DNA of 64,000 nucleotides. Origin: a virus. Positions 37,601 through 56,854 of the stretch are shown here, one piece after another. The notes beneath the pieces were generated by a model. That model worked only from the letters and a program-made list of their open reading frames with translations, was not told where the DNA came from and did no database searches. The stretch lies in IMG/VR virus record IMGVR_UViG_3300032180_000001, positions 64,001-128,000 of that record. The stretch is one strand, 5' to 3'. Every line of letters starts with the position of its first letter. Position 1 is the stretch's first letter. The position numbers and the translations under genes are program-made.

Positions 37601-40600
37601 CCTGAAATTTTTCCTGAACCTTGCGCATAAGAGCGGATGACTCGAAAGCTGCAAGGAACTCATTTATATCCGGAACAGCTTCGACAGGAACGGTTAGCTT
37701 AGTACTACTCCATTGTGCGCCAAGTGCCTGTGCGGCGGCAAGATTAGCATCCTCAACTTCTGTTCTATAGGTATCAAAAAATTTCTTCTGTGCCTTCGTC
37801 AGCGGAACCGTGATCGCCTCAGCAGTTGCGTCACCCGCACCCTTCATCGTTGTCCGGACCTTGTCGGCAAACCCGGTTAGCGCTGTCTCCGACTCTTCTA
37901 TGCTCGGCCCGAGATCAACCGGTATCTCAACAGGATTGGCCTTCACCTCCGCAACAGCCGCGGTAACAGCCGTTGCGACCTCCGGCATGACCTTCGACGT
38001 GTCCGCAGTGAACGGAACGCTTGCCGCCGCCGCCGCTGCCGCCTCTTGCGCGGCCTTCTTCAGCCTGGCTTTCATCACCATGTCGGCCTGCTTCTCCGAC
38101 AGCCCGGCCGCGATCAGCTCCGGTATCCCTCCCGCGACGGGCTTGTACTCTTCCCGCCCGACCGACATCTGCACGCTCTTCATAAAGTCGGCCATATTGG
38201 CTTTAACCGGGATTGTCCGGCTCTGAGTTATCCGCGCCATCTCCGCCTGGATCTCGGCTTCGCTGAACTTAGCCTTCATTTCGACTGGATGAGCTGCAAT
38301 CTCGGCATCCGCCACCGCGACTACCTTAGCTACCTCCGGGGTAATCACCGTTGTGTCTGTCTTGATTTGTTCCACAATCGGATTAGCCGCTGCCCAGGCG
38401 CTTGCTGCTTTTTTCGCTTTATCTAGATCATCATCCAGGTCTTCCAGGTAGTCAGCCGCAGGCCGAACAGATACCGTAGCAATAATCTTATAACCGGTTT
38501 TTGATGCATAGCTACCAGAACTTGGGTAGGCTGACGCATGAGGGGCATTATCTGCCGGATTTACGGGGGCGACCTGGTACGTATATCGACCAAGCAGGTT
38601 AGCCGCATTTGGTTTCTCATTAGCCCACGCCAGTCCGCTCCTACCGGGGTTAATGATATCTCCGACATCTAGCTTCGCATTAGTTGCGTGAAACAGGTCC
38701 TTTACCTCAGTGACGGCAGCAGTGGCCTCTGAGATAATTTTTTCTGTGTCAAGTTCTACCGGAATTTTAGTGTTCCTGTACTTAGCCTTTATGGCGGCTA
38801 GCTGCGCCTCAATCGGATCTTTATTTATATCTGGCGTGAACTCCATCTTCATCGACTTCATAATCTCGGCGACCGACTTGTCCGGCACCGGTACTGCGTT
38901 CTCCGGCTTATACAGGACCTGAGTAGCGCCCTTAAATACATCCTTCGAAGGGACGTCGAACGACCGGACAACGAAACCAAGCTCTTTCAGCTTAGGCAGC
39001 CATTCATCAAACCAGGTGTTCAACTGCTTCATGTCCTCGAATGCGCTGCGAGCACCTTCGCTGAAAAGCTTTATTGCCTTGTCTTCACTGACGATGTTTC
39101 CAAGAAGCGAGTCTTCCCAGACAGGAGGGTGCTCCCAATCTCGGGCGTTGTGCGTTGATGGTGCCGTCTCGGACACGCCAGGACTGCCCGCGTACGGCCC
39201 CCTGCCGGTCTCTGCATGCTCAACGCGGAAGATGCGAGTCATCTCCTGCTTTACTGCGGCTTCAGCAGCTTTGTCCATAACAGGCTCAACCGTAACCGGC
39301 AGGGCTTCAAGGTGAATATTCCGAACGCCCTCAATAATTTGATCTTTAAGTACCTTAAACGGCTGATTTCTCGGGAAGGTAAATTCATGTGCGTCGTCCG
39401 GGAGATCCCCCAGGGCTATACTCTGCCTATTCAGGGCCTTGACTCCCGGTCCTGCAGTAATTTTCATCAAGGTGGTGCCGAATGTTTTTGCTACATCCTC
39501 CGACACTGCGGCGCTAGTGTAGCCCTTATCCTGGATTATCTGACCGGTCTTACTCCCAACACTACCGAGAATCTCATCAGGCTTATTAACACCCCGAAAC
39601 AAAGTAACCTGCTGAGTAAAATCTGATACTTTATTAATCAGGGAGTCAATATCTGAGACAATACTAGCAACACCATTATCCTGAGTACTTCCAGCACCCC
39701 CGACTGATAGACCCCTTAGTTGATCCTGTATTGTCTTGAAAGACCACTCGTAATACCTTTTCATAGCAAACAGGTCGTCTTCAGTCGTGCTGCTAGGAGT
39801 CCCTTCGCTGGACTTAGCTAGTTTCATTCCTGACAAAGCCTGCTTCATCTCCCGGGAGGCATCCCTGAACTCCCCAGCAGACATCTGCACGCTTCGCATA
39901 AAGTCGGCCATTGACGATCCAGCGCTCGCGGTCGGGCCAGGCCCTGCAACCCCCGCTCCCGCAACCCCCGCTCCCTCAAGCCCAGAAGAATCAACCCGGA
40001 TCTTGACCGTCCGGTCCCGGGTGACGATCTTCAGCATCTCTTCGGCCACATCGATCGAACGGTCATCCAGGTCGGCCCGTATCCTCACCATGCGCTCGGC
40101 GGTCAGCGCGTCCAGTGCCGCCTGCGCCGCAGCCGAGTCCAGGACGACGTCGATCTCAAGGTCCTGTCCCGGCGGGAGTACGAGCTTTCCAACGTCAAAC
40201 GTCACCGGAATCTGGGTAGTAAGGCTGCGAAGCTCCGCCAGCTTCCGGTCCAGATCAGCCGTGTTGATATCGATGCTCAGGTAGTCGGACAGACCGGTTT
40301 GCGCGATCAGCTTCTTGATCAGCATGAGCTGGCTGCGGATCTTCGACTGAGGCACGTTAACATCAGCGAAGTCCGCCAGGCCAGACTGGGCTGCCAAAGT
40401 CTTCAGCTTCGCGAACGCCGCAGGAGCGCCCTCAACATTGACGCCGACATCAACCGTCCGGTCCGCCGTCAGGGCATTCAGCTCCGTTTTCGCCGCCGTC
40501 ACAGAACCAGGCTTCAGGTAAAACTCGACCGGAATATCCGCCACGACATCCTGAGTAACGGCGGCAACCTTAACCTGCAAGCCAATTGCGGTACCCAGAT

Positions 40601-41159
40601 TGAACTCAGCCGGAATATCCGCCTTAACGCCTTCGGTAACCGCATCAACCTGAGCCTGCAGTCCGCCCGAGCCACCGCGGACACCAAGATCGACAGGAAC
40701 GAGTGCGCTGGCGCCTTCCGCCATGGCATCAATCTTTACCTGAAACTCGGCCCGAGATGGCATGTTAAGGTCAACCGGTATCTTGGCTCCGATACCCGCA
40801 GTCAGCGTCTCAACCTGAGCCTTCATTCCTGTTTTAGTTCCAGTCAGGTCAACAGGTACCTTCGCCTTGATTCCTGCAGTCAGCGTCTCAACCTGAGTCT
40901 TTACGGCTGCCTTTGAAGGAAGCTTAAATTCGACTGGTATCTTTGCCTGAATCCCCGCGGTCAGCGTCTTAACCTGGCCTTGCAATTTAGTCTTAGTCCC
41001 AGTCAGCTCAATTGGAACCTTTACCTGCAAGTCATGATCAGTAAGAGCCAGCTTGTTAACTTCCCCCACCGCAGTTTTTACCTGCTTGGTAAGATCAGCA
41101 AAAAAACCGTCATCATTTGGTTTAATGTTAACGTAGGCCTCTCCCAAAAGACGGGCCAC
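25629..41159 (-). CDS. giant tape measure protein with ART-like, M23-like, tail-lysozyme and LysM domains
   Basis: 5176-aa ORF after chaperone genes; MARLLGEAYVNIKP start; Ala-rich helical core; 33-aa W/F repeats; three GGxxxGxGxGDxVPAxLxPGExV units. Confidence 0.9.
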   Translation of the reverse strand: MARLLGEAYVNIKPNDDGFFADLTKQVKTAVGEVNKLALTDHDLQVKVPIELTGTKTKLQGQVKTLTAGIQAKIPVEFKLPSKAAVKTQVETLTAGIKAKVPVDLTGTKTGMKAQVETLTAGIGAKIPVDLNMPSRAEFQVKIDAMAEGASALVPVDLGVRGGSGGLQAQVDAVTEGVKADIPAEFNLGTAIGLQVKVAAVTQDVVADIPVEFYLKPGSVTAAKTELNALTADRTVDVGVNVEGAPAAFAKLKTLAAQSGLADFADVNVPQSKIRSQLMLIKKLIAQTGLSDYLSIDINTADLDRKLAELRSLTTQIPVTFDVGKLVLPPGQDLEIDVVLDSAAAQAALDALTAERMVRIRADLDDRSIDVAEEMLKIVTRDRTVKIRVDSSGLEGAGVAGAGVAGPGPTASAGSSMADFMRSVQMSAGEFRDASREMKQALSGMKLAKSSEGTPSSTTEDDLFAMKRYYEWSFKTIQDQLRGLSVGGAGSTQDNGVASIVSDIDSLINKVSDFTQQVTLFRGVNKPDEILGSVGSKTGQIIQDKGYTSAAVSEDVAKTFGTTLMKITAGPGVKALNRQSIALGDLPDDAHEFTFPRNQPFKVLKDQIIEGVRNIHLEALPVTVEPVMDKAAEAAVKQEMTRIFRVEHAETGRGPYAGSPGVSETAPSTHNARDWEHPPVWEDSLLGNIVSEDKAIKLFSEGARSAFEDMKQLNTWFDEWLPKLKELGFVVRSFDVPSKDVFKGATQVLYKPENAVPVPDKSVAEIMKSMKMEFTPDINKDPIEAQLAAIKAKYRNTKIPVELDTEKIISEATAAVTEVKDLFHATNAKLDVGDIINPGRSGLAWANEKPNAANLLGRYTYQVAPVNPADNAPHASAYPSSGSYASKTGYKIIATVSVRPAADYLEDLDDDLDKAKKAASAWAAANPIVEQIKTDTTVITPEVAKVVAVADAEIAAHPVEMKAKFSEAEIQAEMARITQSRTIPVKANMADFMKSVQMSVGREEYKPVAGGIPELIAAGLSEKQADMVMKARLKKAAQEAAAAAAASVPFTADTSKVMPEVATAVTAAVAEVKANPVEIPVDLGPSIEESETALTGFADKVRTTMKGAGDATAEAITVPLTKAQKKFFDTYRTEVEDANLAAAQALGAQWSSTKLTVPVEAVPDINEFLAAFESSALMRKVQEKFQAALTAAKPVVTPELNTAPAMAECTALDKAIEAEKPEVSITADTAPAMTEVMALDKLIMTTIRSMATAGGDRPGGYINLTDLRAALSGVKNLDAALVQLYRDQKVNLVPQHNQQTLTDLQRQQAMFVGGEYKHRVSSQEFIQPKVDLGPATAEVAALDAKISKPVEVPVEPKMSEAARDKLYQDMMMTAAKARVGEVMKPVAVPLTVNKEAATREFRTAIENGSKEAATAAKAAFNQADTPVVTPKLDEKPALAEAAALDEKIATEKPKITPEVNLAPAMEKATAELVTWTEKVGTGKGFLQEYQRVTAAADTSITLQISKWGKLKNTVETTAAEVERVRAIYAKGYGESSQGGVRGYADKGYTVTTAAIGGMAAAEYLAAAAEKVQEKAADAAADSTGGLGATMAATAAQAAKSAKAFEPLNTIIPADMIAKLKELDAATSDLGEKAGYSAAQAMILRIEQSKLSNEMKQSTVDLMSQAAAADTVIRMVTLLSQAEKELKRVKAAHTASGAAGGADQQKTWDDLARKMTKDWNDLSKLQASANKDNLKFDADQRKAWDDLARKMTKDWNDLGKLQEAALKEYQKFLAPQTAAANIDITEAMNKLFMLDAESKKIKETLISLATHVDSDSAKRVLADIAVEAIRLQDELKDIASIDLSKATAGDIARVKDLASAYGRLRSVMATTMAGSAGGGKGGGGGGVLAAAAAGAAGAAGGGGITPFLTKGAGGWFGWMQQQVQAFNGAAKSVKLWHIAMELAVEIFAVWIPALATLALGLGGFALAAKDAVTQVTTYVKNLGTVTTAMGTQMNFMVVSAGGSLQKLGAQAGGVTTKVSSLGNSFSALQDQVRPQVFELYGSALTAMASKSGGVMQKLITDTGTALDRTAARIAVDMNKASSGTGLSNFIKMGQRDIAGLATAFANLGALLGALAGITQRTHIAEIMLGIGVAVTKLFRVVADFIHTPFGGALAAWAIGLHALYAWSGLAATALLNLVERLGIGLAAAKGWAVVGPMFEALGGRIARFGEVLKGLGPAAVSGAIFIAAALAAVVVWAVKAQDAMQKYASAQIAAVANSTPITMLSTTENSLKNVTAAWRQAVASGSADARTLGQSRQQLLGDFTLESERLVQISKLYGISLPAAMQLAQTAGVKVSDFTNADNKAWATSMQMIASLVTGYLNMGQTMGMVGSDMNVLSVTANDQVTAINNLTSAWDTWYGIVTGTQTSMATFGQSMKTFNTDIASGTSTYDTVNTDFQSLLTNANSLVDANMKAGASGPQLTSSIADTGAAMVTAAGNNKTWQAEVVSWVQRAAPYVTTFQQATNWISQMGGSLTKLQGNQNAVTIGNSNLTGKAAALAHTLQSDLTPAQQALVGSTGKVQTALAKFTTDLGKGNKAAASKDRVQLLADLKSVGIYGPDAAKYVNDLANYTLNLGKATTAAKPGTSSFSDTIQSLRLNLKQIIDVVGIPLMHGLNLFAGWVKDISKNTAGKLFLESIAVTLAGIALLKFTGVTSLFKALSGSSLLGRLTGGLLGGKVDGSNAAALMRTAFEEGGTSAAAMIREALVSGGATVATEETAGAATGGKFGPPTGIPGARGTSDVVQGGELAAGGFFSRFGTWFKGLFGKAGGGAEGAGGEGLLRGAGGTALIAAIIGQVLGRVSNAVVGKPTQASNLATYNKTVPGWFQPIANLLFTRQGAANISVGGANAVTGFFTGHRTSDSGQGGPRDPNSVVGALGSSSKTIGGVFHTAWAGVFTGFQHDVADKIYDFFVGSKGSDLKGFLSNTLKLFDGFWSIIAQGFHNRFVHAIGDSFPHEMAVVFDGARHEGAHLWDDAISGLNGLVNRAIQEGAVIFDGMRHEGAHLWDEAISGLSGLVNNAIQEGAVIFDGMRHEGAHLWDEAISGLSGLVSTALQEGAVIFDGMRHEAAHLWDEAISGLAGLGNTLFNVINNALTGHHVHVSLPFGLSFEFTYAKGGHVPGSGSGDTVPALLTPGEFVINKNARKKLENKFGPDVLHKMNKFAAGGSVFDQFGAPGVTVPAGTYSATPASIAAAQKKAGVSPAKAAKAVSPAATGASGTPLVTGASILAGIYAQNKLTAATNKLTALMAQGPATTAQKKAAQSGLTGANASAAAAQLNLNKLLASGTATSAQLAAAHKTLNNAQAGAVAQMTNLNKVYGQHKATQAQLLAAANAQAAAQNAQNRLNNAGVSAVNTAANKAGAALTGAATTAAGTTTGAATTAAGITTGAATTAAATITTATTPKPAPPKPNQPGHVTRGGYVPPTDSRGRPAVDQPPHPGFTSPAGYVPARGPKGDMYSTPPGGGRSPVNLAAGYADITKPGTTGTPPDIGRALVTYTRDLNNNASAQKLVADRTALANSLVKDGLSTQAQATASVSKYTGVIQDQQHSQAQAVEYTKDMVATTPKAKAVIDNLTQAVASNNKTAIGTNQRKLIKILTDAHVPINQATASVKDLTGKIHAVPPSVKLSSAIARAGLTGLLQGLKLNQHKINEVNALKIHPGSDPRDVNKMLGLIGLNSTQIADVNKLKIKPGSDPGQVDALLHHLGLNSNQIAIINSTLIKPQVQQPPPIKPTVQQPPPLRIPITLVPDTMHLGKLGAAGLNALMYGLPGHAKGGHIGGTGHGDTVPAMLTPGEFVLTKTAAAHLKKMYGPGFLDGLNKYATGGSVGGGGAGHPAHAITLTSTGGGSAKHAELGDGGTGKLGKSVKKNLNDALGFVRGQFSNGLSRVFTKDLPASLDKSAASTRDKFAKPVQKTLTGHLGWQQNTFGTAMDKLYTKALPAVYDNSAQAASSRYDKPVRTTMAQHLNWQQGTFGTGISNLYTQAIPGVYNASAKTSSTQYDTPVRGIMTGHLAWQKSPFLSTMTTIYTSQVPQAFATGVSNVGGAWGRLTSVIKPPVNTSIGGLNNLVTGINSIGSWASVSGSIPKIATMARGGRLDGFGGGDSVPALLEPGEAVVDKMTVRKHASALKAMGVPGFAKGGVVGGGYVNPIPSSAGSSRIDQGVDFTGAGPVLAIGNGTILRTSEGGWGPPAGPSPGTFFTYRLNDGPKAGSVVYLAEGVPLVPGLKVGGSLTAGQVIGVMNGSSIETGFADPSGTHPLTQGGGLTAGGAEFWSFLKSLGTKQTPTNMGGSVAASGGVSTVPTGPDPSALGKLSAVGTDLLLQTSAGNAKAVVDLLKGTGNPAKGTGTRNLAGILSGMPPKLAQEAVAHIAKAGASALAGGVGTGPAGGATGSEMANGRELYNYLLTNLFGGQKFAAAGATASIWGESNWNPFAAGTGGRGLIGWTPAGTISDAAFKGGMKTQLPAIIEFVNSSGDQGVISQMKSTTSVLEAANLWGKGVERYGINDVHSTGLSLAASFMKSKGGLVYNVKAGDTLSGIAARFLGNAGDWAEIWDANRSVIGGNPNLLTVGERLGIPGMSGGHGGHQRNRKPGQKPKPKTPKQTLAGMEAALAADQRAETRYGNKMNYDLAHGLTGAYSADSVKAQNALFAAATEQANIKAYKAWMALTPLQKAQQTVQRDDLALTHAKDAVAAALANVESLGGTLSRFKGSKTSPAYRLELKNYQKAQAALFHAGQVEKGDQAAYNAAAKQVAQYQQNPGNDRYLRGLLAKLTRDQAAAAKAAAGMANDSKHHDDAGYFRDSKLYKGAEFAIGKDQLAIKHREAVLAAIPEQERAALVRQISSEEKKIAAAEKAANIAYGVAETDQRILGHDRKGSKKWKTDNWHYQRALRAYLNAGNRVTGDQGVLRGLEQKLGALPGGAGLQLPTANTPVLQLVRALTTNPMLKYLISGPGSVTPLGWAMQPELGDLMVANVFNPASWVGKSATQNGGLYAGMQANYDAAQLAVQQFLMDKGQTKALKLAGKATGIHGIDEHGRRFDQGGLVQPGLNLINNQTGAPEMLTPSRSGWISPRGHGDSRSSRPVSPDGMTAYERESLNEMRALRASMDANTAAVNRQGPAFSQALTGSAHRAASRGNYGGW
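31800..32170 (-). repeat. 99-bp (33-aa) tandem repeat, about 4 copies, inside the tape measure gene
   Basis: EGAVIFDGMRHEGAHLWDEAISGLSGLVNNAIQ-type units. Confidence 0.85.
35880..36060 (-). repeat. 108-bp (36-aa) duplication inside the tape measure gene
   Basis: WDDLARKMTKDWNDL occurs twice. Confidence 0.85.
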
Positions 41160-43825: not shown

Positions 43826-44941
43826 ATGAAAGAGAAAATCTGCATCGATTGTGGCAGAACTTACACACACGGCGGACGGGGGCTGTGCCCGAACGACTAC
43901 GCAAAAAGGAAGCGCTACGGAACACTTCCGCCCCTGAAAACAAGAGGCCCCGACGCTCAGTGCAAAGCTCCCGAAGGATGCACGAACATGGTAGGGCGCT
44001 CCGGCGCCAGAGGGCTGTGCCCTAAGCACTACCAGCGACTTGTCAAGTCAGCTGGAGGGCTGGAGCAACCGGTGCGAACGGCTCCACTAGCGGCGAGGTT
44101 TCGCGCGAAAATAAGTACCGAGCCATGCCCGTGCGGTTGCGATTGCGAACTGTGGACGGGAGGGATTCAGCCTAAAACCGGGTACGGTAATTTCTCGATC
44201 AAGAACAAGACTTATCTAGCACATCGCGTCGCGTGGGAGCTGGAGAAAGGCGAGATACCGGACGATTTCGATATCGATCACGTCCAGGAGCGCGGCTGCC
44301 GTCATAGGCATTGTGTTAAGATTACGCACCTGGAACCTGTTCCGACGGTGCTGAACAATCGGCGTATACCAATGACGGAGCAGCGAAGAGACGGACTTTC
44401 GGAAGCAGGAAAGAGGGGATCTGCCATCCGCTGGGCAAGAGTCCGGGCCGGTGAGGCTGAAGTCGATCAGGCAATCTGCTCCCGGGTTCTCGCTTTCGTT
44501 CTTGCCCATCCCGATGGTAGTCGTGCGCGGCAGATAGCAGAGGCGCTGGATATGTCTATCCACAACGCAAGGCAAGGTCTTACCCGTCTCGCTAAACGCA
44601 AGATGATTCTCGGTAATGGTTCCGGGCTTTACCAGCCGCTACCTGCTGAAGAATGCTGGCGTCCTGTGCGAGGCTATGCCGCGTTTTATGAAATCTCTGA
44701 CCGGGGGAACGTCTCTGCCCTGGCCCGGCCGCGAACGCACGGCGGACTGCTGATTCCCCAGCTCAACTCCGCAGGCTTCCGGGTTGTTCGGCTGTCTAAG
44801 TACGGTCAAGTGACAACATGGACTGTAGGACGACTCGTGCTCGAAACGTTCTGCTGGCCACCTCCGCATCCGAAGGCGAGAGCGAAGCATGGCCTAAACG
44901 GTAAGCTAGATGACGCACTGTCAAATCTTCACTGGAGTTAA
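43826..44941 (+). CDS. chimeric HNH endonuclease (Zn fingers, HNH, HTH, NUMOD4, truncated second HNH)
   Basis: CELWTG...GYG...LAHRVAWE...DIDH...CRHRHCV...HLEPV, followed by WRPVRGYAAFYEISDRGNV. Confidence 0.8.
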   Translation: MKEKICIDCGRTYTHGGRGLCPNDYAKRKRYGTLPPLKTRGPDAQCKAPEGCTNMVGRSGARGLCPKHYQRLVKSAGGLEQPVRTAPLAARFRAKISTEPCPCGCDCELWTGGIQPKTGYGNFSIKNKTYLAHRVAWELEKGEIPDDFDIDHVQERGCRHRHCVKITHLEPVPTVLNNRRIPMTEQRRDGLSEAGKRGSAIRWARVRAGEAEVDQAICSRVLAFVLAHPDGSRARQIAEALDMSIHNARQGLTRLAKRKMILGNGSGLYQPLPAEECWRPVRGYAAFYEISDRGNVSALARPRTHGGLLIPQLNSAGFRVVRLSKYGQVTTWTVGRLVLETFCWPPPHPKARAKHGLNGKLDDALSNLHWS

Positions 44942-48099: not shown

Positions 48100-48183
48100 A
48101 CGCTCGGCCCTCCGGATGGGGTATTATATGTGTAGCGGGTTTAGAGTGAACAACTAGTAAAGAGAAGGGGACGGGAAAGTAGC

Positions 48184-48432
48184 GTGCTGATAAAGCAGAA
48201 ATCTCATCCGATGCCCGATGAGGTCCTGCTGGTCGCCCGGATGGAAGCGGAAGACCGTCGCAAGACCCGGGAAGAGTACTATCACTGGCAGGAGCGGGAT
48301 CTCAGGATCCGGCTGGCGATCTACACCGACATCGTGACCGGAAAGCGCTTTCCTGCCGAAGGTCGCACCTACTACAAGGTCCGCATCGCGATGATCCGCA
48401 ACGAGCTGAAGGCGCGGAAGGCGGGGCCATGA
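48184..48432 (+). CDS. hypothetical protein
   Basis: 82-aa ORF convergent with the minus-strand cassette. Confidence 0.55.
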   Translation: MLIKQKSHPMPDEVLLVARMEAEDRRKTREEYYHWQERDLRIRLAIYTDIVTGKRFPAEGRTYYKVRIAMIRNELKARKAGP

Positions 48433-48819
48433 CTAGTGCGGATACAGAGCCTTGCAGTCCCGCGGAGCGTCCTTGGCGTTCACGATCGCGCGCAGCTCGG
48501 TTACCTCCGCTATTATCTTCGGCGTCAGCTTTGCTCCCTTCGGCGTCGCATCAGAGAAAAATGCGCCCCAGAGAAGTTTATCTTGCGCTCGTGCACTATT
48601 ATTTTCCACGCACTGACTGTACTGAACGACCGCTTCACCGCTGTTCCCGTGAATCTGCCCGATCGTCAGGAAAACAACGATGATCGACAGTGCTACATCC
48701 AGGCAGATGGAAACAGCCAGCATCAGCGCGGTCTTCTTGCTGGCTTTGCCTCGCTGCAACTGCCCGATCAGCCTCATCGCCGTGCTGATCAGGGCCTCAT
48801 CATCCTCTTCCGGCTTCAT
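48433..48819 (-). CDS. single-TM membrane protein, paralog B
   Basis: DDEALISTAMRLIGQLQRGKASKKTALMLAVSICLDVALSII. Confidence 0.7.
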   Translation of the reverse strand: MKPEEDDEALISTAMRLIGQLQRGKASKKTALMLAVSICLDVALSIIVVFLTIGQIHGNSGEAVVQYSQCVENNSARAQDKLLWGAFFSDATPKGAKLTPKIIAEVTELRAIVNAKDAPRDCKALYPH

Positions 48820-49214
48820 CTCGTCCCCTGTCCGTATACTTGCTGGCAGTCCACAGGAATATAAAGAGCTTCAACTACTTTCAGGAAAGATTTACCGAGC
48901 GCGTTACTATGAAAATCCTCAGTATTCAGTATCCACAGACTAACAAACTCCTGCTGAGTAGCATTGCTCTCATTGCAAATGGTCAGCTCCTGTGAGCGAA
49001 GTCGGTTTTCCTGATCAACAAGTCCGGAATTACTGTGCGACAACCCGACCCCGAGAAGTATCACCACAATGGAAAGCGTGACATCCAGAAAAATAGAAAT
49101 AGCGAGCAACAGCACAGTTTTCTTGCTGGCCTTCGTCCGCTGAAGTTTCTTTATCAACTCCATCGCAGTGCCGATCAGAACATCATCGGCGGGTTCCTCA
49201 GTTCTGTCCGGCAT
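48816..49214 (-). CDS. single-TM membrane protein, paralog A
   Basis: DDVLIGTAMELIKKLQRTKASKKTVLLLAISIFLDVTLSIV; start adjusted to MPDRTEEP. Confidence 0.7.
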   Translation of the reverse strand: MPDRTEEPADDVLIGTAMELIKKLQRTKASKKTVLLLAISIFLDVTLSIVVILLGVGLSHSNSGLVDQENRLRSQELTICNESNATQQEFVSLWILNTEDFHSNALGKSFLKVVEALYIPVDCQQVYGQGTR

Positions 49215-49446
49215 CCGATCGCTCCTGCTCGATAACGCGCAGCATAATAGCCGCTGCCATCTTATCCCGATTCGGTTTCTTCGCATCCTCGCGAATCGAG
49301 ACCAGCAAGCTAATAAGCCGCAGCATATCTCCGTTCGTCAGTCGTCCTTCCTGATACCCTTCGAGCAGGCGATCAAGATCAGCCTTATCCGAATTAAGCT
49401 CGTCCACGATCACCGCCATTATTTCCGCCCCAGCCGCAGGTACCAC
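49198..49446 (-). CDS. small helical protein (LDxLL...AAAIMLR family)
   Basis: Paralogous to 50556-50771 and to the C-terminus of 51721-52446. Confidence 0.7.
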   Translation of the reverse strand: MVPAAGAEIMAVIVDELNSDKADLDRLLEGYQEGRLTNGDMLRLISLLVSIREDAKKPNRDKMAAAIMLRVIEQERSDAGQN

Positions 49447-50264
49447 ATCCGTGCGGACATCTCCCTCTCCGGAGCGAGAAAGGCTAGCGCCCAGGTGCCG
49501 AACCAGATAAACCAGCCCGCATCCCCAACGGACGGCTGACTCCAGCTCCAGTGCAGGATGGCATACGCGAACAGCGAATCAGAGGCCAGTAGCCCCAGTG
49601 CGCCGATGCTAATCAGCCAGAAGGAATTCGACACCCTCGTTCCGTGACGAAAATGCCGCATGGCCAGAACGATGGTGACCAGCGCGCAGATCTGCAGCAG
49701 CAGTAGAATGTCCGCCGTCGGATAGGCGATGGATACTACCTTGGCGATGGTCGAGGCGCCACTGGCATGCGCGTTAGGACTGATGAGGAGAGGCCAGGAG
49801 AACAGCCCGAAAGTAAGACCTGTTACCGCCACTGCCACCGCTGCGGCACGCCGGTTCACGTGGATGTTGCCGCCGCTGGCCAGCATCACCAGTCCGGCCA
49901 CGAAAAATACGTAGCTGCTCAGTTCCAGCGCGTCGGACAGCCCTGGATAAGGCACGCTGTCCGTGATCTTCGTGTAAGCGAGAGCCGTTCCAGCGCCCAG
50001 CAAGTTCAACGCCATCCCGACGAGCAGTAGCAGCCAGGCGAACTTCCGCCGACTGGGATTAAGCACGACGCCGAGGATCATCCCCGCTACGGCCAGTCCC
50101 AGAACCGGCATGAACCCCACCGTGATCCAGCCAGGCACTTTCGGCTGAATGTAGTAGGCGACGATGACCGCGATGTAGCCGAGAAGGAACAGCGCCTGCG
50201 CCTGGCTCAGGAAACCGGGCCAGGGCGCAGCTGGCTTTCCGGTGTCCGATGCTGAAATAGCCAT
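49419..50264 (-). CDS. stand-alone multi-TM sensor domain of the type N-terminal to actinobacterial GGDEF proteins
   Basis: About 8 TMs; AWLLLLVG...YPGLSDALELSSY...AYPTADILLL...LLASDSLFAY...DAGW pattern; no cytoplasmic output domain. Confidence 0.7.
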   Translation of the reverse strand: MAISASDTGKPAAPWPGFLSQAQALFLLGYIAVIVAYYIQPKVPGWITVGFMPVLGLAVAGMILGVVLNPSRRKFAWLLLLVGMALNLLGAGTALAYTKITDSVPYPGLSDALELSSYVFFVAGLVMLASGGNIHVNRRAAAVAVAVTGLTFGLFSWPLLISPNAHASGASTIAKVVSIAYPTADILLLLQICALVTIVLAMRHFRHGTRVSNSFWLISIGALGLLASDSLFAYAILHWSWSQPSVGDAGWFIWFGTWALAFLAPEREMSARMWYLRLGRK

Positions 50265-50530
50265 TACGATTCTCCATTCGCTTCCGGAACTACTCTTCTG
50301 GTGATCTGAACAACACGGCAGGGTGCCCCGCGGCAGGCTCTGGCGAGCTGTTTCGCCTCATCAAGCGTCAGCGGCCCCGTCAGTGAGAACCCGAGAAACG
50401 ATCTCACCTCGAACCCGGCTCCTCGCCACGCACCGAGAAGAAACCACTCGACATCATATTCTTCAGCCCAGCCAGCATCCGGCTCGATCTCGCGATCATC
50501 TGAACTGTCGTCTTCTCTCCATGCCTCCAT
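50264..50530 (-). CDS. hypothetical protein
   Basis: TAATG overlap with the downstream gene; acidic N-terminus. Confidence 0.5.
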   Translation of the reverse strand: MEAWREDDSSDDREIEPDAGWAEEYDVEWFLLGAWRGAGFEVRSFLGFSLTGPLTLDEAKQLARACRGAPCRVVQITRRVVPEANGES

Positions 50531-50555
50531 TGCGCACCTCCCCGCAGTTCTCTGC

Positions 50556-50771
50556 CTAGCTCAGCCATTTTTCCGTCTTCGCCTGCTCGATGAAACGTAG
50601 CATGATCGCCGCCGCAACCCTGTCCCCAGCGATAAAATCTTCTGCCACGCCGTTCATGATCCGCAGGAGCAGTCCTTTCAGCTCTTCCGTCTCCACAGGT
50701 ATCAGCTCGTCCCGGCCGAATTTCTCTAGCAAAGTATCCAGGCGCAGACGACTCGACGGGATAGCTGTCAC
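50556..50771 (-). CDS. small helical protein (LDxLL...AAAIMLR family)
   Basis: LDTLLEKF...DRVAAAIMLRFIEQ. Confidence 0.7.
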   Translation of the reverse strand: MTAIPSSRLRLDTLLEKFGRDELIPVETEELKGLLLRIMNGVAEDFIAGDRVAAAIMLRFIEQAKTEKWLS

Positions 50772-51268
50772 GACGAACCTGACTCGTCCTGGAAAAACTC
50801 TCTGCGCCTGACGGCAGCAATAACATACAACCCTCGCTCTGTCGGAATAGGGGCCAGTGTTATATCGACAGGAAGTTCCTGACCGCTCTTCGTCAGTAGC
50901 GAAAGAGCGAGGCCCGTGCCCATCGGGCGAATTACCGGGTTAGTCAGGTAAGCTTTCCGATGCGCCGCGTGCCCAGACCTCAGAACACTAGGTACCAGCA
51001 TATCTATCGACTCTCCGCGCAGTTGTGATCGGTAATAACCAGTCAGCAGCTCCATCTGACGGTTAACCAGGAAAATTTTTCCGGTCTCTCCCTCGACAAT
51101 GGTAATAGCATCCGGAAAATCATCGAATATCTTGATAGTCAGATCAGCGACGAAAACTATGTCAGTGCGAGGAATCTCCGGACGCAGCAGGAGATGCAGT
51201 ACAGGCACAACATACGTTTCAACCGAATTATCCGCCAATTCACTGCCTCCCTGTTCACTATTTGTCAT
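50768..51268 (-). CDS. stand-alone PAS domain protein
   Basis: FDDFPDAITIV...IFLVNRQMELLTGY.RSQLRGESIDMLVP...H...Y...RPMG...TKSGQELPVDITLAP. Confidence 0.85.
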   Translation of the reverse strand: MTNSEQGGSELADNSVETYVVPVLHLLLRPEIPRTDIVFVADLTIKIFDDFPDAITIVEGETGKIFLVNRQMELLTGYYRSQLRGESIDMLVPSVLRSGHAAHRKAYLTNPVIRPMGTGLALSLLTKSGQELPVDITLAPIPTERGLYVIAAVRRREFFQDESGSS

Positions 51269-51720
51269 GGCGAACCTGGCTTACCTGACGGACCATTTCG
51301 AGGCTCCCTGCGCCGAAGCGTAGCGATGACGAACAGGCCGTGCATTGTTGAAACGGGAGCGAGCATGATGTCCACCGGAACCTCCCGCCCGCTCTTCGTC
51401 TGAATCGAAAGATTGAGGTTGGCGCCCATCTGCCGGACCTTAGGATCAACCATGTACCCGGTTCGGTGCTCGAGATGCCGCGGACGGCGCTCTTGCGGCA
51501 CGAGCATGTCCACCGTCTGGTTGCGCAACTCGCTACGGTGATAGCCGGTCAGGAACTCAGCCTGGTCATTGACGAGCCGGATCCGGCCGGTTTCCCCGTG
51601 CACGATGATGATCGCATCCGGTGACTGCTGGAAAATCTGAACAGCCAGGTCGGCGGTGAAGCGGATATCTTCGGCGATCTGACCGATTCCGCGCTCGTCC
51701 TGGTAACTCTCTGTGCTCAC
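51265..51720 (-). CDS. stand-alone PAS domain protein
   Basis: FQQSPDAIIIV...IRLVNDQAEFLTGYHRSELRNQTVDMLVP...H...Y...RQMG...TKSGREVPVDIMLAP. Confidence 0.85.
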   Translation of the reverse strand: MSTESYQDERGIGQIAEDIRFTADLAVQIFQQSPDAIIIVHGETGRIRLVNDQAEFLTGYHRSELRNQTVDMLVPQERRPRHLEHRTGYMVDPKVRQMGANLNLSIQTKSGREVPVDIMLAPVSTMHGLFVIATLRRREPRNGPSGKPGSP

Positions 51721-52446
51721 TTAAGTCTCGCCTTCTAGTACCCGGAGAATAATAACTGCTGCGATCCGGTTCCCCGTCGGTGCCTCCCGACTGTCCAGAA
51801 TCTCCCGGAGCATATCGGCTAGCGCCGCTTTCTCATTCGACGTAATGATCTGCGCCTGGTACCTTTCTAGCAAATTGTCCAGCTCCGGCGTATGCGGGCT
51901 GTGCAGAATGCGCGCGGCGTCATAGGCGACGTTCTTCCAGAACACGTCGATCTTGGTTTCCAGCACGCCAGTCCGGTCAGCAACCGTGCTCAGCCGGTCA
52001 GTAACTGACTGAAGCGAGGGCACGACCCGCCGGTTGATCTCGTCGACCTTGCCTTCCAGCGCTCCGGTTCGGTCAGAAACGAGATTGAGCTTGTCTGTTG
52101 CCGCAAGGAGTGCCGGAGCGACCCGGCTATTAATGTCGGCGATGTCCCGCTCGTTCTTCTCGATTTTGCTGATAAAGCCCTCTACCGAACTAGCCACTAC
52201 ATCCTTTGCGATGCCCTGTATCTGGGCAACACGATCCTTAGAGCTATCCCTTCTCCGAGAGTACAGAAAAGAGATAACAGCGACAAGAACAGCAGCTATC
52301 GCAGAAAGTATCGTGAGGATCTCGTAAAAAGCTACACCGCCGGACGAAGAAGATGCTGCCGCATCAGCCACCGTCAGTATCAGACCGCCTGCCACGCCCA
52401 GATTCCCTTCGCTCGCAAGGGACCGGCTCCAGCAGGCCGCGGTCAT
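51721..52446 (-). CDS. TM / coiled-coil protein with a 31-aa duplication and a C-terminal LDxLL...AAxIxLR domain
   Basis: TM segment ILTILSAIAAVLVAVISFLY; repeats INSRVAP...LEGK and INRRVVP...LETK. Confidence 0.7.
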   Translation of the reverse strand: MTAACWSRSLASEGNLGVAGGLILTVADAAASSSSGGVAFYEILTILSAIAAVLVAVISFLYSRRRDSSKDRVAQIQGIAKDVVASSVEGFISKIEKNERDIADINSRVAPALLAATDKLNLVSDRTGALEGKVDEINRRVVPSLQSVTDRLSTVADRTGVLETKIDVFWKNVAYDAARILHSPHTPELDNLLERYQAQIITSNEKAALADMLREILDSREAPTGNRIAAVIILRVLEGET

Positions 52447-52483
52447 ATACGCTTAGCGTAGCGTACCTGTCTAGTACAGTCTA
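52447..52483 (-). promoter_or_regulatory. sigma70-type promoter for the PAS cassette
   Basis: TAGACT (52483-52478), 17-nt spacer, TACGCT (52460-52455), then 8 nt to ATG 52446. Confidence 0.5.
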
Positions 52484-52621
52484 AGCCTCGCTCGCGGGGG
52501 ATGATCCTTCCGGCGGAACGGTGAAATCGCGGTCACGTACCCAGCCCTGCCGTTCGAGGAGGACGGCCATCTCCTCGCTTACCACCGGCTTCGCGTGCAC
52601 CGGCCCGTCCCGGAAGTCCAT
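52481..52621 (-). CDS. small hypothetical protein (46 aa)
   Basis: MDFRDGPVHAKPVVSEEMAVLLERQGWVRD...; fills the gap after the glycosyltransferase gene. Confidence 0.4.
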   Translation of the reverse strand: MDFRDGPVHAKPVVSEEMAVLLERQGWVRDRDFTVPPEGSSPASEA

Positions 52622-52631
52622 GCCTGGCAGT

Positions 52632-53712
52632 TTACAGGTCGTCTAGCGCCCGCAGCAGCTTCCTGGCGTTCGCTTCGAAAGTTCTGTCGGCAACAGCTTC
52701 CCGCGCCTGCTCCGCTATCTTGCCCCGTTCTGCCTCGTGCGTGATATACCAGTGCAGGATTTCGCTGGCATCTTCCGGGTCGGTGAACCGCGGCAGCATG
52801 TGCAGCACTTCGTCTCCTTCCGGGCGCGCGTCCCGAAGGAAGGGCAATCCGATGGCCGCCATCTCTACCTCGCGCGGCCCCATGGCCCAGCCCTGGCCAG
52901 CGTAGGCGTCTTCGGACTCACGCCGGTACAGATTGATCCCCATCTTTGCGTGCCGGTACAGCTCCGCCGTTTCCGTGTTGTCCACACAGGTATCGCGACC
53001 GTGCCCGATATACTTCCGCAGCCTGCTGTCCGGTGCCAGCTCCTCGTCCCAGTAATTGCCGCCAAGCAGCACGTCGAGGTTCCCCAGATCGAGGCGCTCG
53101 AAAAACTCGGCACGGCTCTTGAAGCAGGTTCCGATGAAGGTCAGATCGGCAGCCAGCTCCGGGTTCACCGGCCCGCGCCGAGGGTAGTGCACGTCCGGGC
53201 GGTACGCGTGCGGCATGTACAGCGCCGGGCCAAGTTCCCGGTACGCAGCGATATTAACTGGATCGTTGAGGAGGTTCAGGTCAGCATGCTGAGCCCGGTC
53301 CAGTTGCTCTCCGTCCTGATAAGTAAGGCGATTCTGTATGAAGGATCACTTGCTTCATTTTCCGTAGCTTGAAAAGCTGGAACATGCCCCCGGTAATAAA
53401 GAACCCGGACACGTACAGAATAACGTCAGGCCAGAAAGTCATCGCCGCGTGGGTCAGCCCCTGCATCGACATGACGATGGCGTCCTTTTGACTCTTCACG
53501 GCCTGCTCGACGACAGGAAGCCCCTGTTCGTCCGTCACAATGTTGCCATGCTCATCTGTTTTCGGAAGAAGAGCCTTGGAATAAAACACGAGCCGATCGT
53601 TCAGGTTATACATAAGGACCTCATTGCCCAGCTCGCGCAATGCATCAGCCCATCCGTAGTAAACATCAGCAACCGAGAAGTCCGGGCCGGGGTGACATAT
53701 CAGAATACGCAC
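52632..53712 (-). pseudogene. CgeB-family glycosyltransferase frameshifted by a 4-bp duplication (53320-53327)
   Basis: GGAGG then GTG 53712. Removing one TAAG gives ...HTESPYQDGEQLDRAQHADLNLLND...MPHAYRP...DLTFIGT...Y..AKMGINLYRR...GPREVEMAAIG. Confidence 0.8.
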
Positions 53713-53821
53713 AAAACCACCTCCTCCCGATGACACACTCGAAATTTTATGGTACGATTTATTCGGCTCGGTAGCACCGGTCAGGGGTACTTCCGAGCCT
53801 GATCGCATCGGAGGTGCGACT

Positions 53822-54355
53822 ATGCCTGATCATACACAGGCGGAGCGCTGGCTGCCAGTGCCGGGGTACGAAGGATTCTACGAGATCAGTAATCGCGGTC
53901 AGGTCCGCAGCATCCGCCACATGACGCAGGCCGGATGGCGCGGTGGCAAGCTGCTCTCACCGTTCCTCGATGCCGATGGGTACTTGCGTGTCAACCTCAG
54001 TCGTTATGGTGCTACTCGAAGTGTTACCATCCACACTCTCGTGCTGACAGCATTCGACCGTCCCCCTGCAAGCGGGGAGCAAGGCAGGCACGGACTCGGC
54101 GGGAAAACTGACAACCATCTAGAGAACCTGGAATGGGGAACGCCACAGGAAAACAGTGACGATAAATACAGAGACGGCACGATGGCCTGTGGCGAGAAGC
54201 AGGGAAATTCAAAACTTACCGCTACTGATATAAAATCAATCAGAACTCGTCGTGCTGCCGGGGAGGAAGCAAGTTCACTAGCTCTTAACTTTAAAATAAG
54301 TGAGACACATGTAAACCGAATCGTAAAGCGTGAATCGTGGCGTCACATACCGTAG
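53822..54355 (+). CDS. NUMOD4-HNH endonuclease with C-terminal HTH (antisense insertion)
   Basis: ERWLPVPGYEGFYEISNRGQVRS; GRHGLGGKTDNHLENLEWGTPQEN; paralog of 24848-25594. Confidence 0.9.
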   Translation: MPDHTQAERWLPVPGYEGFYEISNRGQVRSIRHMTQAGWRGGKLLSPFLDADGYLRVNLSRYGATRSVTIHTLVLTAFDRPPASGEQGRHGLGGKTDNHLENLEWGTPQENSDDKYRDGTMACGEKQGNSKLTATDIKSIRTRRAAGEEASSLALNFKISETHVNRIVKRESWRHIP

Positions 54356-56041: not shown

Positions 56042-56854
56042 TCAGTGTAGACGTTCGAGCAGCTCGTCGCGGTAGTTCGTCACCACAAAGTCAAGCAGAG
56101 CCCCTCGGTAGTTCGCCACCACAAAGCTCAGCAGATCATCGACGCGCTGCCCCTTCCAGGACACCCATAGTTCTAGATTGTCAGGCCGATTATCAGTCTT
56201 GATGCCATTCTTGTGATGAACCTCCTCTTCTCGAAGTAGCGGACGCCCTAGCTGTTCCTCCATGACTAGACGGTGTTCGAATCGATCCCTGCCATTAACC
56301 TTAATTTTTCGATAACCATTTTCTGTAACCCAGCCGCGATCATCGTGATAGTAGGCCGGGCCATCCATCGGGCTGCCTGCCTTGCGTCGTCGCTCATGCC
56401 GAGGGCAGAGACCGCTTGCCGAACTTATCTTGGGCTGGTCGCATCCTTCCCAGACGCACTCCGGAACGGGTTCGTCTTTCCGGCGATGCGGTCGGATTGG
56501 CGCGTTCATATCTGAATGCAGAATGTACTTTCGATGATAATGCACCGAGCAGTATCCACGTGAGCTATGCGGACGATCACAGCCAGGGTGACTACACAGC
56601 TTCTTTTCAGCAAACGGTACGTCCATGTTCCGGCCATTACGAACCCGCTGATAGTGTGCCGAACAGTATCCGCCCGCATGATGTGGCCGATCACAACCAG
56701 GATGATTGCAGTTTCGTTGACTGCCCCTGAACGGTATGTTCATGTCCCGACCCGTGAGCTGACGCTGGTAGTGCGCGTTGCACAGACCTGTTTTCTTATA
56801 AGAACGAGGCCGGTCGCAGCCAGGCCACGTGCAGGTAGACTGATCTTGTGTCAT
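56042..56854 (-). CDS. HNH endonuclease with four N-terminal CxxxGC...C..HY Zn-finger repeats
   Basis: EHRLVME..LGRPL...EEVHHKNGIKTDNRPDNLELW; TAAAAT 6 nt before ATG. Confidence 0.9.
   Translation of the reverse strand: MTQDQSTCTWPGCDRPRSYKKTGLCNAHYQRQLTGRDMNIPFRGSQRNCNHPGCDRPHHAGGYCSAHYQRVRNGRNMDVPFAEKKLCSHPGCDRPHSSRGYCSVHYHRKYILHSDMNAPIRPHRRKDEPVPECVWEGCDQPKISSASGLCPRHERRRKAGSPMDGPAYYHDDRGWVTENGYRKIKVNGRDRFEHRLVMEEQLGRPLLREEEVHHKNGIKTDNRPDNLELWVSWKGQRVDDLLSFVVANYRGALLDFVVTNYRDELLERLH

Follow-up and report, generated by a model that had tools for sequence, protein, structure and literature searches.

Nine minus-strand open reading frames (ORFs), occupying positions 48433-52446 of a 64,000-nucleotide stretch of viral DNA (the window), encode two stand-alone PAS proteins of the haem type, an eight-helix membrane sensor domain, one acidic orphan and members of three further families of small, mostly membrane-anchored or helical proteins. 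The window corresponds to bases 64001-128000 of a 184,980-bp virus with a CheckV completeness of 99%, an uncultured soil phage whose host is very probably an actinomycete. The reading tentatively favoured here is that this nine-gene cassette specifies an autonomous, phage-specific membrane sensor complex, having no enzymatic output, which would determine when a late membrane event, most likely lysis, takes place. The parts are found together in uncultured phages alone, and on this ground the phage probably senses the oxygen or redox state of its host. The module occurs repeatedly in uncultured soil phages, and the cassette is its richest form, combining two sensor types with what may be a reusable docking domain.

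Organisation of the cassette

In order of transcription, the cassette runs from g1 (family A) through g2 and g3 (PAS), g4 (family X), g5, g6 (family TM8) and g7 (X), to g8 and g9 (family E); coordinates are collected in Table 1. The successive intergenic gaps are 0, -4, -4, +25, -1, -1, -17 and -4 nt, and with spacing that is near zero or overlapping, the nine genes are therefore tightly (translationally) coupled. The same nine genes were returned by an independent gene call on an identical 222-kb contig, which, together with the ORF layout and the gaps, upholds the tight coupling proposed in an earlier description of this DNA made from its letters (hereafter the sequence-only reading). The real start of g1 is probably the GTG at 52395, giving 224 aa, as homologues align only from residue 38 of the longer, 241-aa ORF and an RBS-like (ribosome-binding site) GAAGGGA lies upstream. 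Those of g7 and g8 are probably at 49419 (73 aa) and 49214 (132 aa), respectively. Much of the cassette is paralogous: g2 and g3 are 56% identical, g4, g7 and the C-terminus of g1 are 33-38% identical, and g8 and g9, rightly taken from the outset for two paralogous transmembrane (TM) proteins, are 39% identical. One TM segment is found in each of g1, g8 and g9.

A promoter-like TAGACA-18-TATATG can be read directly from the sequence upstream of g1, its -10 element overlapping the ATG (52446) of the longer g1 ORF. It is the sole match within the window to a pattern that was, however, defined post hoc; a consensus promoter scan did not pick it up, and sites found by the scan are no commoner than in shuffles (2 vs 2.2). 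The letters of the -35/-10 promoter described in the sequence-only reading are thus present, but the site does no better than chance and is retained as a plausible candidate. The best promoter-like site of the region, TTCACT-16-TATAAT (10/12; 48123-48150, minus strand), lies downstream of the cassette, antisense towards a LysM gene.

Pfam domains above cut-off occur in g2 and g3 only, where they are PAS domains, the other seven proteins having none. Across Pfam, PHROGs, NCBIfam and PADLOC, no kinase, cyclase, phosphodiesterase, GGDEF, EAL or DNA-binding domain was found in any of the nine. The output-less character first ascribed to the cassette extends to the whole phage, in which no HATPase_c, Response_reg, GGDEF or EAL was detected. 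The phage accordingly lacks the HisKA-HATPase_c kinase and receiver that define a two-component system, both of which are present in a sister contig (L005/L009), as well as the GGDEF or EAL domain that defines an enzyme of cyclic diguanylate (c-di-GMP) metabolism; with such enzymes the phage has an input domain alone in common.

Two stand-alone PAS proteins of the haem type

The PAS fold of g2 and g3 is established by above-cut-off matches to Pfam PAS, PAS_4 and PAS_9, and the generic PAS model TIGR00229 of NCBIfam scores 6.5e-15 for g2 and 7.6e-12 for g3. Right behind this generic model rank those of DosP and FixL, which are the best full-length models for both proteins. All 14 PDB sequence matches of g2 are haem PAS domains, including FG214 (10JX, 2.9e-15), DosP/EcDOS (1e-8) and FixL (3.5e-5). 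The distal ligands or gas-contact residues of these domains are Met95 in DosP, Met172 and His175 in FG214, and Arg220 in FixL.

By position count along the PDB alignment, with the FG214 residue numbering offset taken from bioRxiv 10.64898/2026.03.15.711900, His156, His159, Met172 and His175 of FG214 correspond to H82, H85, M98 and N101 of g2. Haem in FG214 is held on the proximal side by His156 and, in the ferric state, on the distal side by His175, for which Met172 is the alternative ligand (bioRxiv 10.64898/2026.03.15.711900). H82, which also pairs with DosP His77, takes the place of the proximal His on the F-alpha helix in g2. Across 14 aligned PAS proteins, of phages and their relatives, H82 never varies and the conservation of M98 is 90% or more, and g3 retains the His, second His and Met of g2. 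The position of FG214 His175 is occupied by Asn (N101) in g2 and by Gly in g3, with His in some relatives. These alignments bear out the haem-type His that had been recognised in the two PAS domains, and make H82, H85 and M98 (g2 numbering) the candidate haem residues of g2; both g2 and g3 may bind haem.

A membrane input domain shared with bacterial signalling proteins

The AlphaFold2 (AF2) model of g6 is a confident one, with eight helices and a predicted template modelling (pTM) score of 0.85. An exhaustive HMMER search found 1579 TM8 relatives, for the most part as the N-terminal 250 residues of 400-1500-aa proteins. In a sample of the long relatives, Pfam placed PAS-GGDEF, PAS-GGDEF-EAL, PAS-HisKA-HATPase_c or a hybrid kinase at the end, and one named relative is a Nocardioides GGDEF-EAL protein. 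The likeness to the input domains of diguanylate cyclases, noticed before any search had been run, is therefore genuine. Five TM8 residues are invariant (W77, D111, P182, D185 and D229), and the phage TM8 proteins are 27-37% identical to the bacterial ones.

In a quick tree of 126 TM8 domains, 12 stand-alone rows split from the 114 others, which are mostly fused bacterial proteins, with an SH-aLRT support of 100 and a branch length of 0.9. The 12-row clade holds every TM8 with a checked phage context, namely this phage and the contigs L009, L014, L026 and L027. From so deep and separate a clade it follows that the phage TM8 proteins are an old lineage and not fresh fragments of a host gene, contrary to one way in which the sequence-only reading might have failed, that of recent, decaying pieces of host DNA.

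Compared with the curated membrane sensor families (MASE, 7TMR-DISM and 5TMR-LYT), g6 gave no Pfam match at E values up to 1 other than a sub-threshold DUF2427, and NCBIfam likewise gave no match. Foldseek returned nothing for the g6 model at E <= 0.001. A VIA-wide fold search with TM8 returned only bundles resembling G-protein-coupled receptors, aligned over seven of the eight helices with Z 9-11.6 and a root-mean-square deviation of 4-5 Å, values in the range of any helical bundle.

The A, X and E families

After a short N-terminal stretch, g1 has a single TM helix (residues 26-44), then a long coiled coil on the cytoplasmic side and, at its C-terminus, an X domain of three helices. Its AF2 model, with a predicted local distance difference test (pLDDT) score of 83, shows a single helix over residues 22-164 followed by three short helices; Foldseek found nothing at E <= 0.001 with the whole 224-residue model, a query dominated by the long helix. 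Family A has the invariant motif LETKIDVFWxNVAxDAAxILHSPH. A reading of LHSPHTPEL in g1 as a DHp-like motif (dimerisation and histidine phosphotransfer; H-x3-T-P as in HisKA) was rejected, the Thr and Pro not being conserved and a Pro standing two residues after the His. The coiled coil of g1 (residues ~95-130) carries an extra ~30-residue repeat relative to most homologues (...RVAPALLAATDKLNLVSDRTGALEGKVDEIN / RRVVPSLQSVTDRLSTVADRTGVLETKIDVF...), and therefore has a longer scaffold arm. Among the 21 relatives of A that were found, none has a Pfam domain except one that is fused to PAS (P0168); fused forms of A longer than 392 aa were not found, which is weak evidence.

Free copies of the X domain are encoded by g4 and g7, paralogues of the C-terminal 55 residues of g1. 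The BLASTP matches of g4 are the g1 C-terminus, g7, and X proteins of the contigs L009, L013 and L014, and g7 is 60% identical to L009 13192-13413, which likewise precedes E genes. For the acidic orphan g5 there was no Pfam, PHROG, NCBIfam or PADLOC match, and no counterpart in L009, L011, L013 or L014.

In the E protein g8, an N-terminal helix on the cytoplasmic side is followed by a single TM helix and then by an outer domain of ~75 aa, in which two Cys and one Asn are invariant. Atlas feature searches with E and A gave scores of only 0.80-0.88, to viral hypothetical clusters and, at 0.80, DUF2746, while the Atlas neighbours of g9 were viral hypothetical clusters scoring 0.83-0.88; all of these are leads only.

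Recurrence in uncultured phages

Carrier contigs were collected by looking up exact protein sequences and by scanning both IMG/VR and metagenomes, and then searched with purpose-built HMMs (hidden Markov models) of the five families A, X, PAS, TM8 and E. Co-occurrence was assessed in 26 non-redundant contigs in which an A gene is flanked by sufficient DNA. In 18 of the 26, PAS is fused to A, lies directly beside it or is one gene removed from it, an E gene stands next to A or follows an X gene in 10, and neither link is present in two. The families are thus co-conserved across ~26 phage contigs, and the co-occurrence search called for by the sequence-only reading has come out in its favour. 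The recurrent strings are PAS-A, A-E, A-X-E, (A-PAS fusion)-X-E, X-TM8-A-X-PAS-E (L014) and PAS-E-TM8 (L026), and the majority of carriers have PAS-A or A-E alone, without TM8. Natural A-PAS fusions occur in P0168 and L043/L044, followed by X and E, and E is usually the last gene of its string. The X-domain genes tend to stand directly upstream of PAS, TM8 or E genes, a position that, with the A-PAS fusion, suggests that X may dock PAS, TM8 and E partners.

Families A, X and E were found in phage contigs only. The carriers span 49 to 73% G+C, and several are complete 52-73 kb phage genomes with terminal repeats. The PAS-A carriers of 50-55% G+C encode lipoproteins and a spanin-like protein, and may therefore infect other phyla. 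No tblastn match to A, PAS, TM8 or E was found in 50,697 GenBank phage records, and none to A in one genome each of 185,579 prokaryote species, in a pattern-based scan that could miss distant copies. Single-protein queries of IMG/VR with g6 and g2 found no close relatives, whereas alignment-based queries did find relatives. In L027 (1242-2790), a stand-alone TM8 gene adjoins DUF932, SsgA and NUMOD4 genes, echoing the island beside the cassette (see below).

The closest counterpart is a sister phage represented by the contig L009 and the overlapping L004, L005 and L010, which has at least 10 genes in common with this phage, some of them from distant parts of the genome. Its order is A, PAS, TM8, PAS-PAS, HisKA-HATPase_c, a 142-aa CheY-like receiver with an intact acidic pocket, X, X, E and E. 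The histidine kinase is one 334-aa ORF in the JGI contig (L005:2716-3720), and is split into 155 and 123 aa in the NCBI metagenome contig (L009:11654-12525), the split being a frameshift, an assembly error or a population variant. As the sister phage places a kinase and a receiver in the same string, the module is a signal input able to feed phosphotransfer. At the position of the kinase and receiver, this phage has its second PAS gene, an X gene and the orphan g5. Twenty-five of the 26 A contigs are without a kinase, as is L026, which has PAS-E-TM8 and no A, and the kinase-free state is therefore the norm rather than a product of decay.

The phage, its host and the surroundings of the cassette

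No DNA similarity to this phage was found among GenBank phages. Outside the window, the phage encodes homologues of WhiB (2.2e-12; G000:C1:37858-38055) and SsgA (1.8e-17; 39366-39674). WhiB is known only from Actinomycetota, and SsgA-like proteins only from filamentous or sporulating actinomycetes; with both homologues in the genome, the host is very probably a filamentous or sporulating actinomycete. Both are regulators of actinomycete development, and point to manipulation of host development as well as to the host itself.

The cassette lies on the strand of the head-tail genes, among structural genes interspersed with homing endonucleases (Table 1). It ends within an island holding homing endonuclease, DUF932 and LysM genes. 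The C-terminal half of the LysM protein gave no Pfam match and no PDB sequence match; the protein could be a cell-wall hydrolase relevant to lysis.

Table 1. Genes of the cassette and features around it (positions in the window; L009 is the sister contig)
Feature	Position	Strand	Description
g1	51721-52395	-	Family A, 224 aa; the long ORF (241 aa) extends to 52446
g2	51265-51720	-	Stand-alone haem-type PAS, 151 aa; Pfam PAS PF00989, 1.8e-10
g3	50768-51268	-	Stand-alone haem-type PAS, 166 aa, paralogue of g2; Pfam PAS_9 PF13426, 1.1e-7
g4	50556-50771	-	Family X, 71 aa, helical; X HMM 4.4e-29; free copy of the A C-terminal domain
g5	50264-50530	-	Acidic orphan, 88 aa, pI 4.4; stop overlaps g6 start by 1 nt
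g6	49419-50264	-	Family TM8, 281 aa, 8-helix membrane sensor domain
g7	49198-49419	-	Family X, 73 aa, helical; X HMM 1.3e-29; directly upstream of the E genes
g8	48816-49214	-	Family E, 132 aa; 68% identical to L009 13397-13780
g9	48433-48819	-	Family E, 128 aa, paralogue of g8, last gene; 57% identical to L009 13794
Promoter-like TAGACA-18-TATATG	52473-52445	-	Candidate, upstream of g1
46-codon ORF	52481-52621		Between the glycosyltransferase gene and the promoter-like site
Glycosyltransferase, split in two ORFs	53281-53808 and 52632-53216	-	Upstream of the cassette; Pfam Glyco_trans_1_2 only in the second ORF
Head-tail adaptor		-	Upstream of the cassette, same strand; phrog_442, 6e-25
Tail terminator		-	Upstream of the cassette, same strand; phrog_17840, 1.8e-15
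Convergent gene	48184-48432	+	Meets g9
LysM protein, 157 aa	47522-47995	+	~440 bp past the cassette end, opposite strand
HNH/NUMOD4 homing-endonuclease genes	43826-44941, 53822-54355, 56042-56854		Scattered in the structural block
5,176-codon ORF	25629-41159	-	Probably tape measure protein

A proposed sensor complex that may time lysis

In the proposed mechanism, the A protein would be a membrane-anchored coiled-coil scaffold, the cytoplasmic end of which carries the small helical X domain. The two PAS proteins would bind haem via the invariant proximal His, with the nearby Met as the likely sixth ligand, and inside the infected cell would report on O2, the redox state or a gas ligand, with TM8 supplying a second, membrane-level signal. 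The free X proteins, g4 and g7, would be adaptors, and the single-pass E proteins the membrane effectors. Signal transfer within this putative complex would proceed by protein contacts, and not by phosphorylation or c-di-GMP, and the respiratory state of the actinomycete host would set the timing of a late membrane event, most likely host lysis. More broadly, and more doubtfully, the module may be an undescribed, kinase-free membrane complex of soil phages, in which a phage-only scaffold (A/X) and effector (E) would accept pluggable, interchangeable sensors, a haem PAS responding to O2 or redox state and TM8 responding to a membrane signal, and so couple respiratory state to the timing of lysis or another late step.

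Several observations are consistent with a link to lysis. The cassette is in a late-operon position, and the E proteins have a topology like that of class III holins. A PAS gene of L028, whose product is 44% identical to g2, has small membrane proteins on one side and a glucosaminidase endolysin (PF01832, 5.3e-18) on the other. Behind PAS-A in L029 come a TM coiled-coil protein and then a lipoprotein with a C-terminal TM helix that looks spanin-like. The placing of X-domain genes directly before PAS, TM8 or E genes and the natural A-PAS fusion, with the docking that they suggest, also favour a late membrane event.

A number of results weigh against this. No endolysin or recognised holin is adjacent to the cassette in this phage, Amidase_2 and GH25 are absent from its genome, and the only nearby wall-related gene is that of the LysM protein, on the opposite strand. 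In the 63-73 kb phages, no endolysin was found next to PAS-A, and the immediate PAS-A neighbours have no Pfam or PHROG function; in six complete PAS-A phages, Amidase_2, Glucosaminidase and Phage_lysozyme are absent, and the sole SLT match is in a 2349-aa frame far from the module. Matches between A and the spanin and holin families of PHROG fall short of significance. Comparison by hhalign found no shared X-docking motif between PAS and E, nor between E and A (probability ~1% or less). Finally, the argument for haem binding is drawn from sequence alone, and g2 has Asn where FG214 has the distal His175.

Alternative explanations

Rather unlikely is a hijacking of host signalling, in which the TM8 and PAS proteins would pair with host cyclases, phosphodiesterases or kinases, as dominant-negative decoys or as foreign inputs, and so alter c-di-GMP or kinase output and host development. 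TM8 is homologous to the input domains of bacterial GGDEF, GGDEF-EAL and kinase proteins, including the Nocardioides enzyme, the phage has no output domain of its own, and its WhiB and SsgA homologues make meddling with actinomycete development plausible. In L027, a related TM8 gene adjoins an SsgA gene. There is also a precedent in PIT4 of phage LSL4, a phage protein that acts on host two-component systems (PMC10714779). However, a TM8 only 27-37% identical to the bacterial proteins, and set in a deep phage-only clade, would be poor mimicry for a decoy, and the PAS and TM8 proteins travel with three phage-only partner families. The sister phage, moreover, brings its own kinase and receiver, and most carriers hold PAS-A or A-E alone, without any TM8. 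The dominant-negative decoy offered in the sequence-only reading is weakened by these findings and is less likely than the sensor complex. The other suggestion made there, an O2 or redox sensor coupled by protein contacts to lysis, fits better with the A-PAS fusion, the PAS gene beside an endolysin and the confinement of A, X and E to phages.

It is improbable that the cassette is a superinfection-exclusion or other membrane defence module, that is, a moron with its own promoter. The variable island in which it sits, with homing endonuclease, DUF932 and LysM genes, would suit such a role, as would the several small membrane proteins and the promoter-like site, and PADLOC gave one weak match, of the N-terminal TM/coiled-coil part of g1 to LeoB (6.9e-6, 23 bits). 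This single match nevertheless runs over low-complexity TM/coiled-coil sequence, and the other eight of the nine proteins have none. The genes are oriented like the late structural genes, some of the carriers are complete genomes of phages, with terminal repeats, and no prophage or cellular copies were found, judging by the pattern-based scan for A in 185,579 species genomes. Very improbable, finally, is a phage two-component system in decay, no longer working and deprived of its kinase and receiver, for which the sister phage might be taken to speak, with these two genes between TM8 and X in L009/L005 and the kinase split into two ORFs in L009. All nine ORFs of the cassette are intact and translationally coupled, kinase-less versions are the rule (25/26 A contigs, plus L026), the PAS gene has been duplicated rather than lost, and the key residues of PAS, E and TM8 are conserved.

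Comparison with known systems

Phages are known to time lysis, or to choose lysogeny, by peptide or autoinducer signals and by superinfection. The literature searched contains no description of a haem protein, encoded by a virus, that senses oxygen or redox state directly, and neither a phage haem-PAS nor a kinase-free sensor cassette was found in it; within that literature, the view that no such phage system had been described stands. Particular to this window are the full multi-sensor form, which includes TM8, an X domain used three times over, the E family and the existence of a kinase-bearing sister phage. If the proposed sensor complex is real, it would offer a way, open to testing, for phages that infect aerobic filamentous soil bacteria to fit their life cycle to the respiration of the host. 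It would also provide for study a haem-PAS scaffold that is new and a bacterial membrane input domain that is widespread but uncharacterised.

The best solved relative of g2 is the haem PAS of FG214 from Fimbriimonas ginsengisoli (PDB 10JX/10JY), whose His156, His159 and Met172 are matched by H82, H85 and M98. FG214 is, however, a bacterial one-component HTH-PAS (helix-turn-helix) transcription factor, whereas g2 and g3 have no DNA-binding domain and travel with membrane partners (bioRxiv 10.64898/2026.03.15.711900). The O2 sensors DosP/EcDOS and FixL belong by sequence to the same PAS subtype, DosP His77 being aligned with H82, and have in common with the proposed mechanism the idea of an O2- or redox-dependent conformational signal; their PAS domains are fused to EAL or kinase output, in contrast to the phage PAS, which stands alone in a phage that has no such output anywhere. 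TM8, for its part, takes the same N-terminal position in GGDEF, EAL and kinase proteins as bacterial input domains of the MASE and 7TMR-DISM type. Unlike those domains, g6 has no Pfam or NCBIfam model and is a separate protein in the phage, and its fold likeness is within the generic range of helical bundles.

The nearest precedents are VqmA-Phi of phage VP882 (PAS-HTH), the lysis inhibition of phage T4, and the action of PIT4 on host two-component systems. The E proteins share with T4 holin T the topology of a class III holin, with the N-terminus in the cytoplasm, a single TM helix and an outer domain that bears a Cys pair, and A and X could be cytoplasmic regulators comparable to the T4 antiholin RIII, a sensor here setting the lysis time (PMC11413866, PMC8385771). 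The analogy goes no further than the logic: neither in sequence nor in fold is there any likeness to holin T or to the antiholins RI and RIII, there is no adjacent endolysin, and the putative signal is haem-based and not superinfection. VqmA-Phi, as presented in PMC10468136, is a PAS-HTH transcription factor that binds an autoinducer, and so differs from the cassette proteins, which are haem-type, without HTH and accompanied by membrane partners. It is at the same time a phage PAS sensor that, as cited there (Silpe and Bassler 2019), reads a signal of host state for a lysis decision, which is the role tentatively proposed here for the phage cassette.

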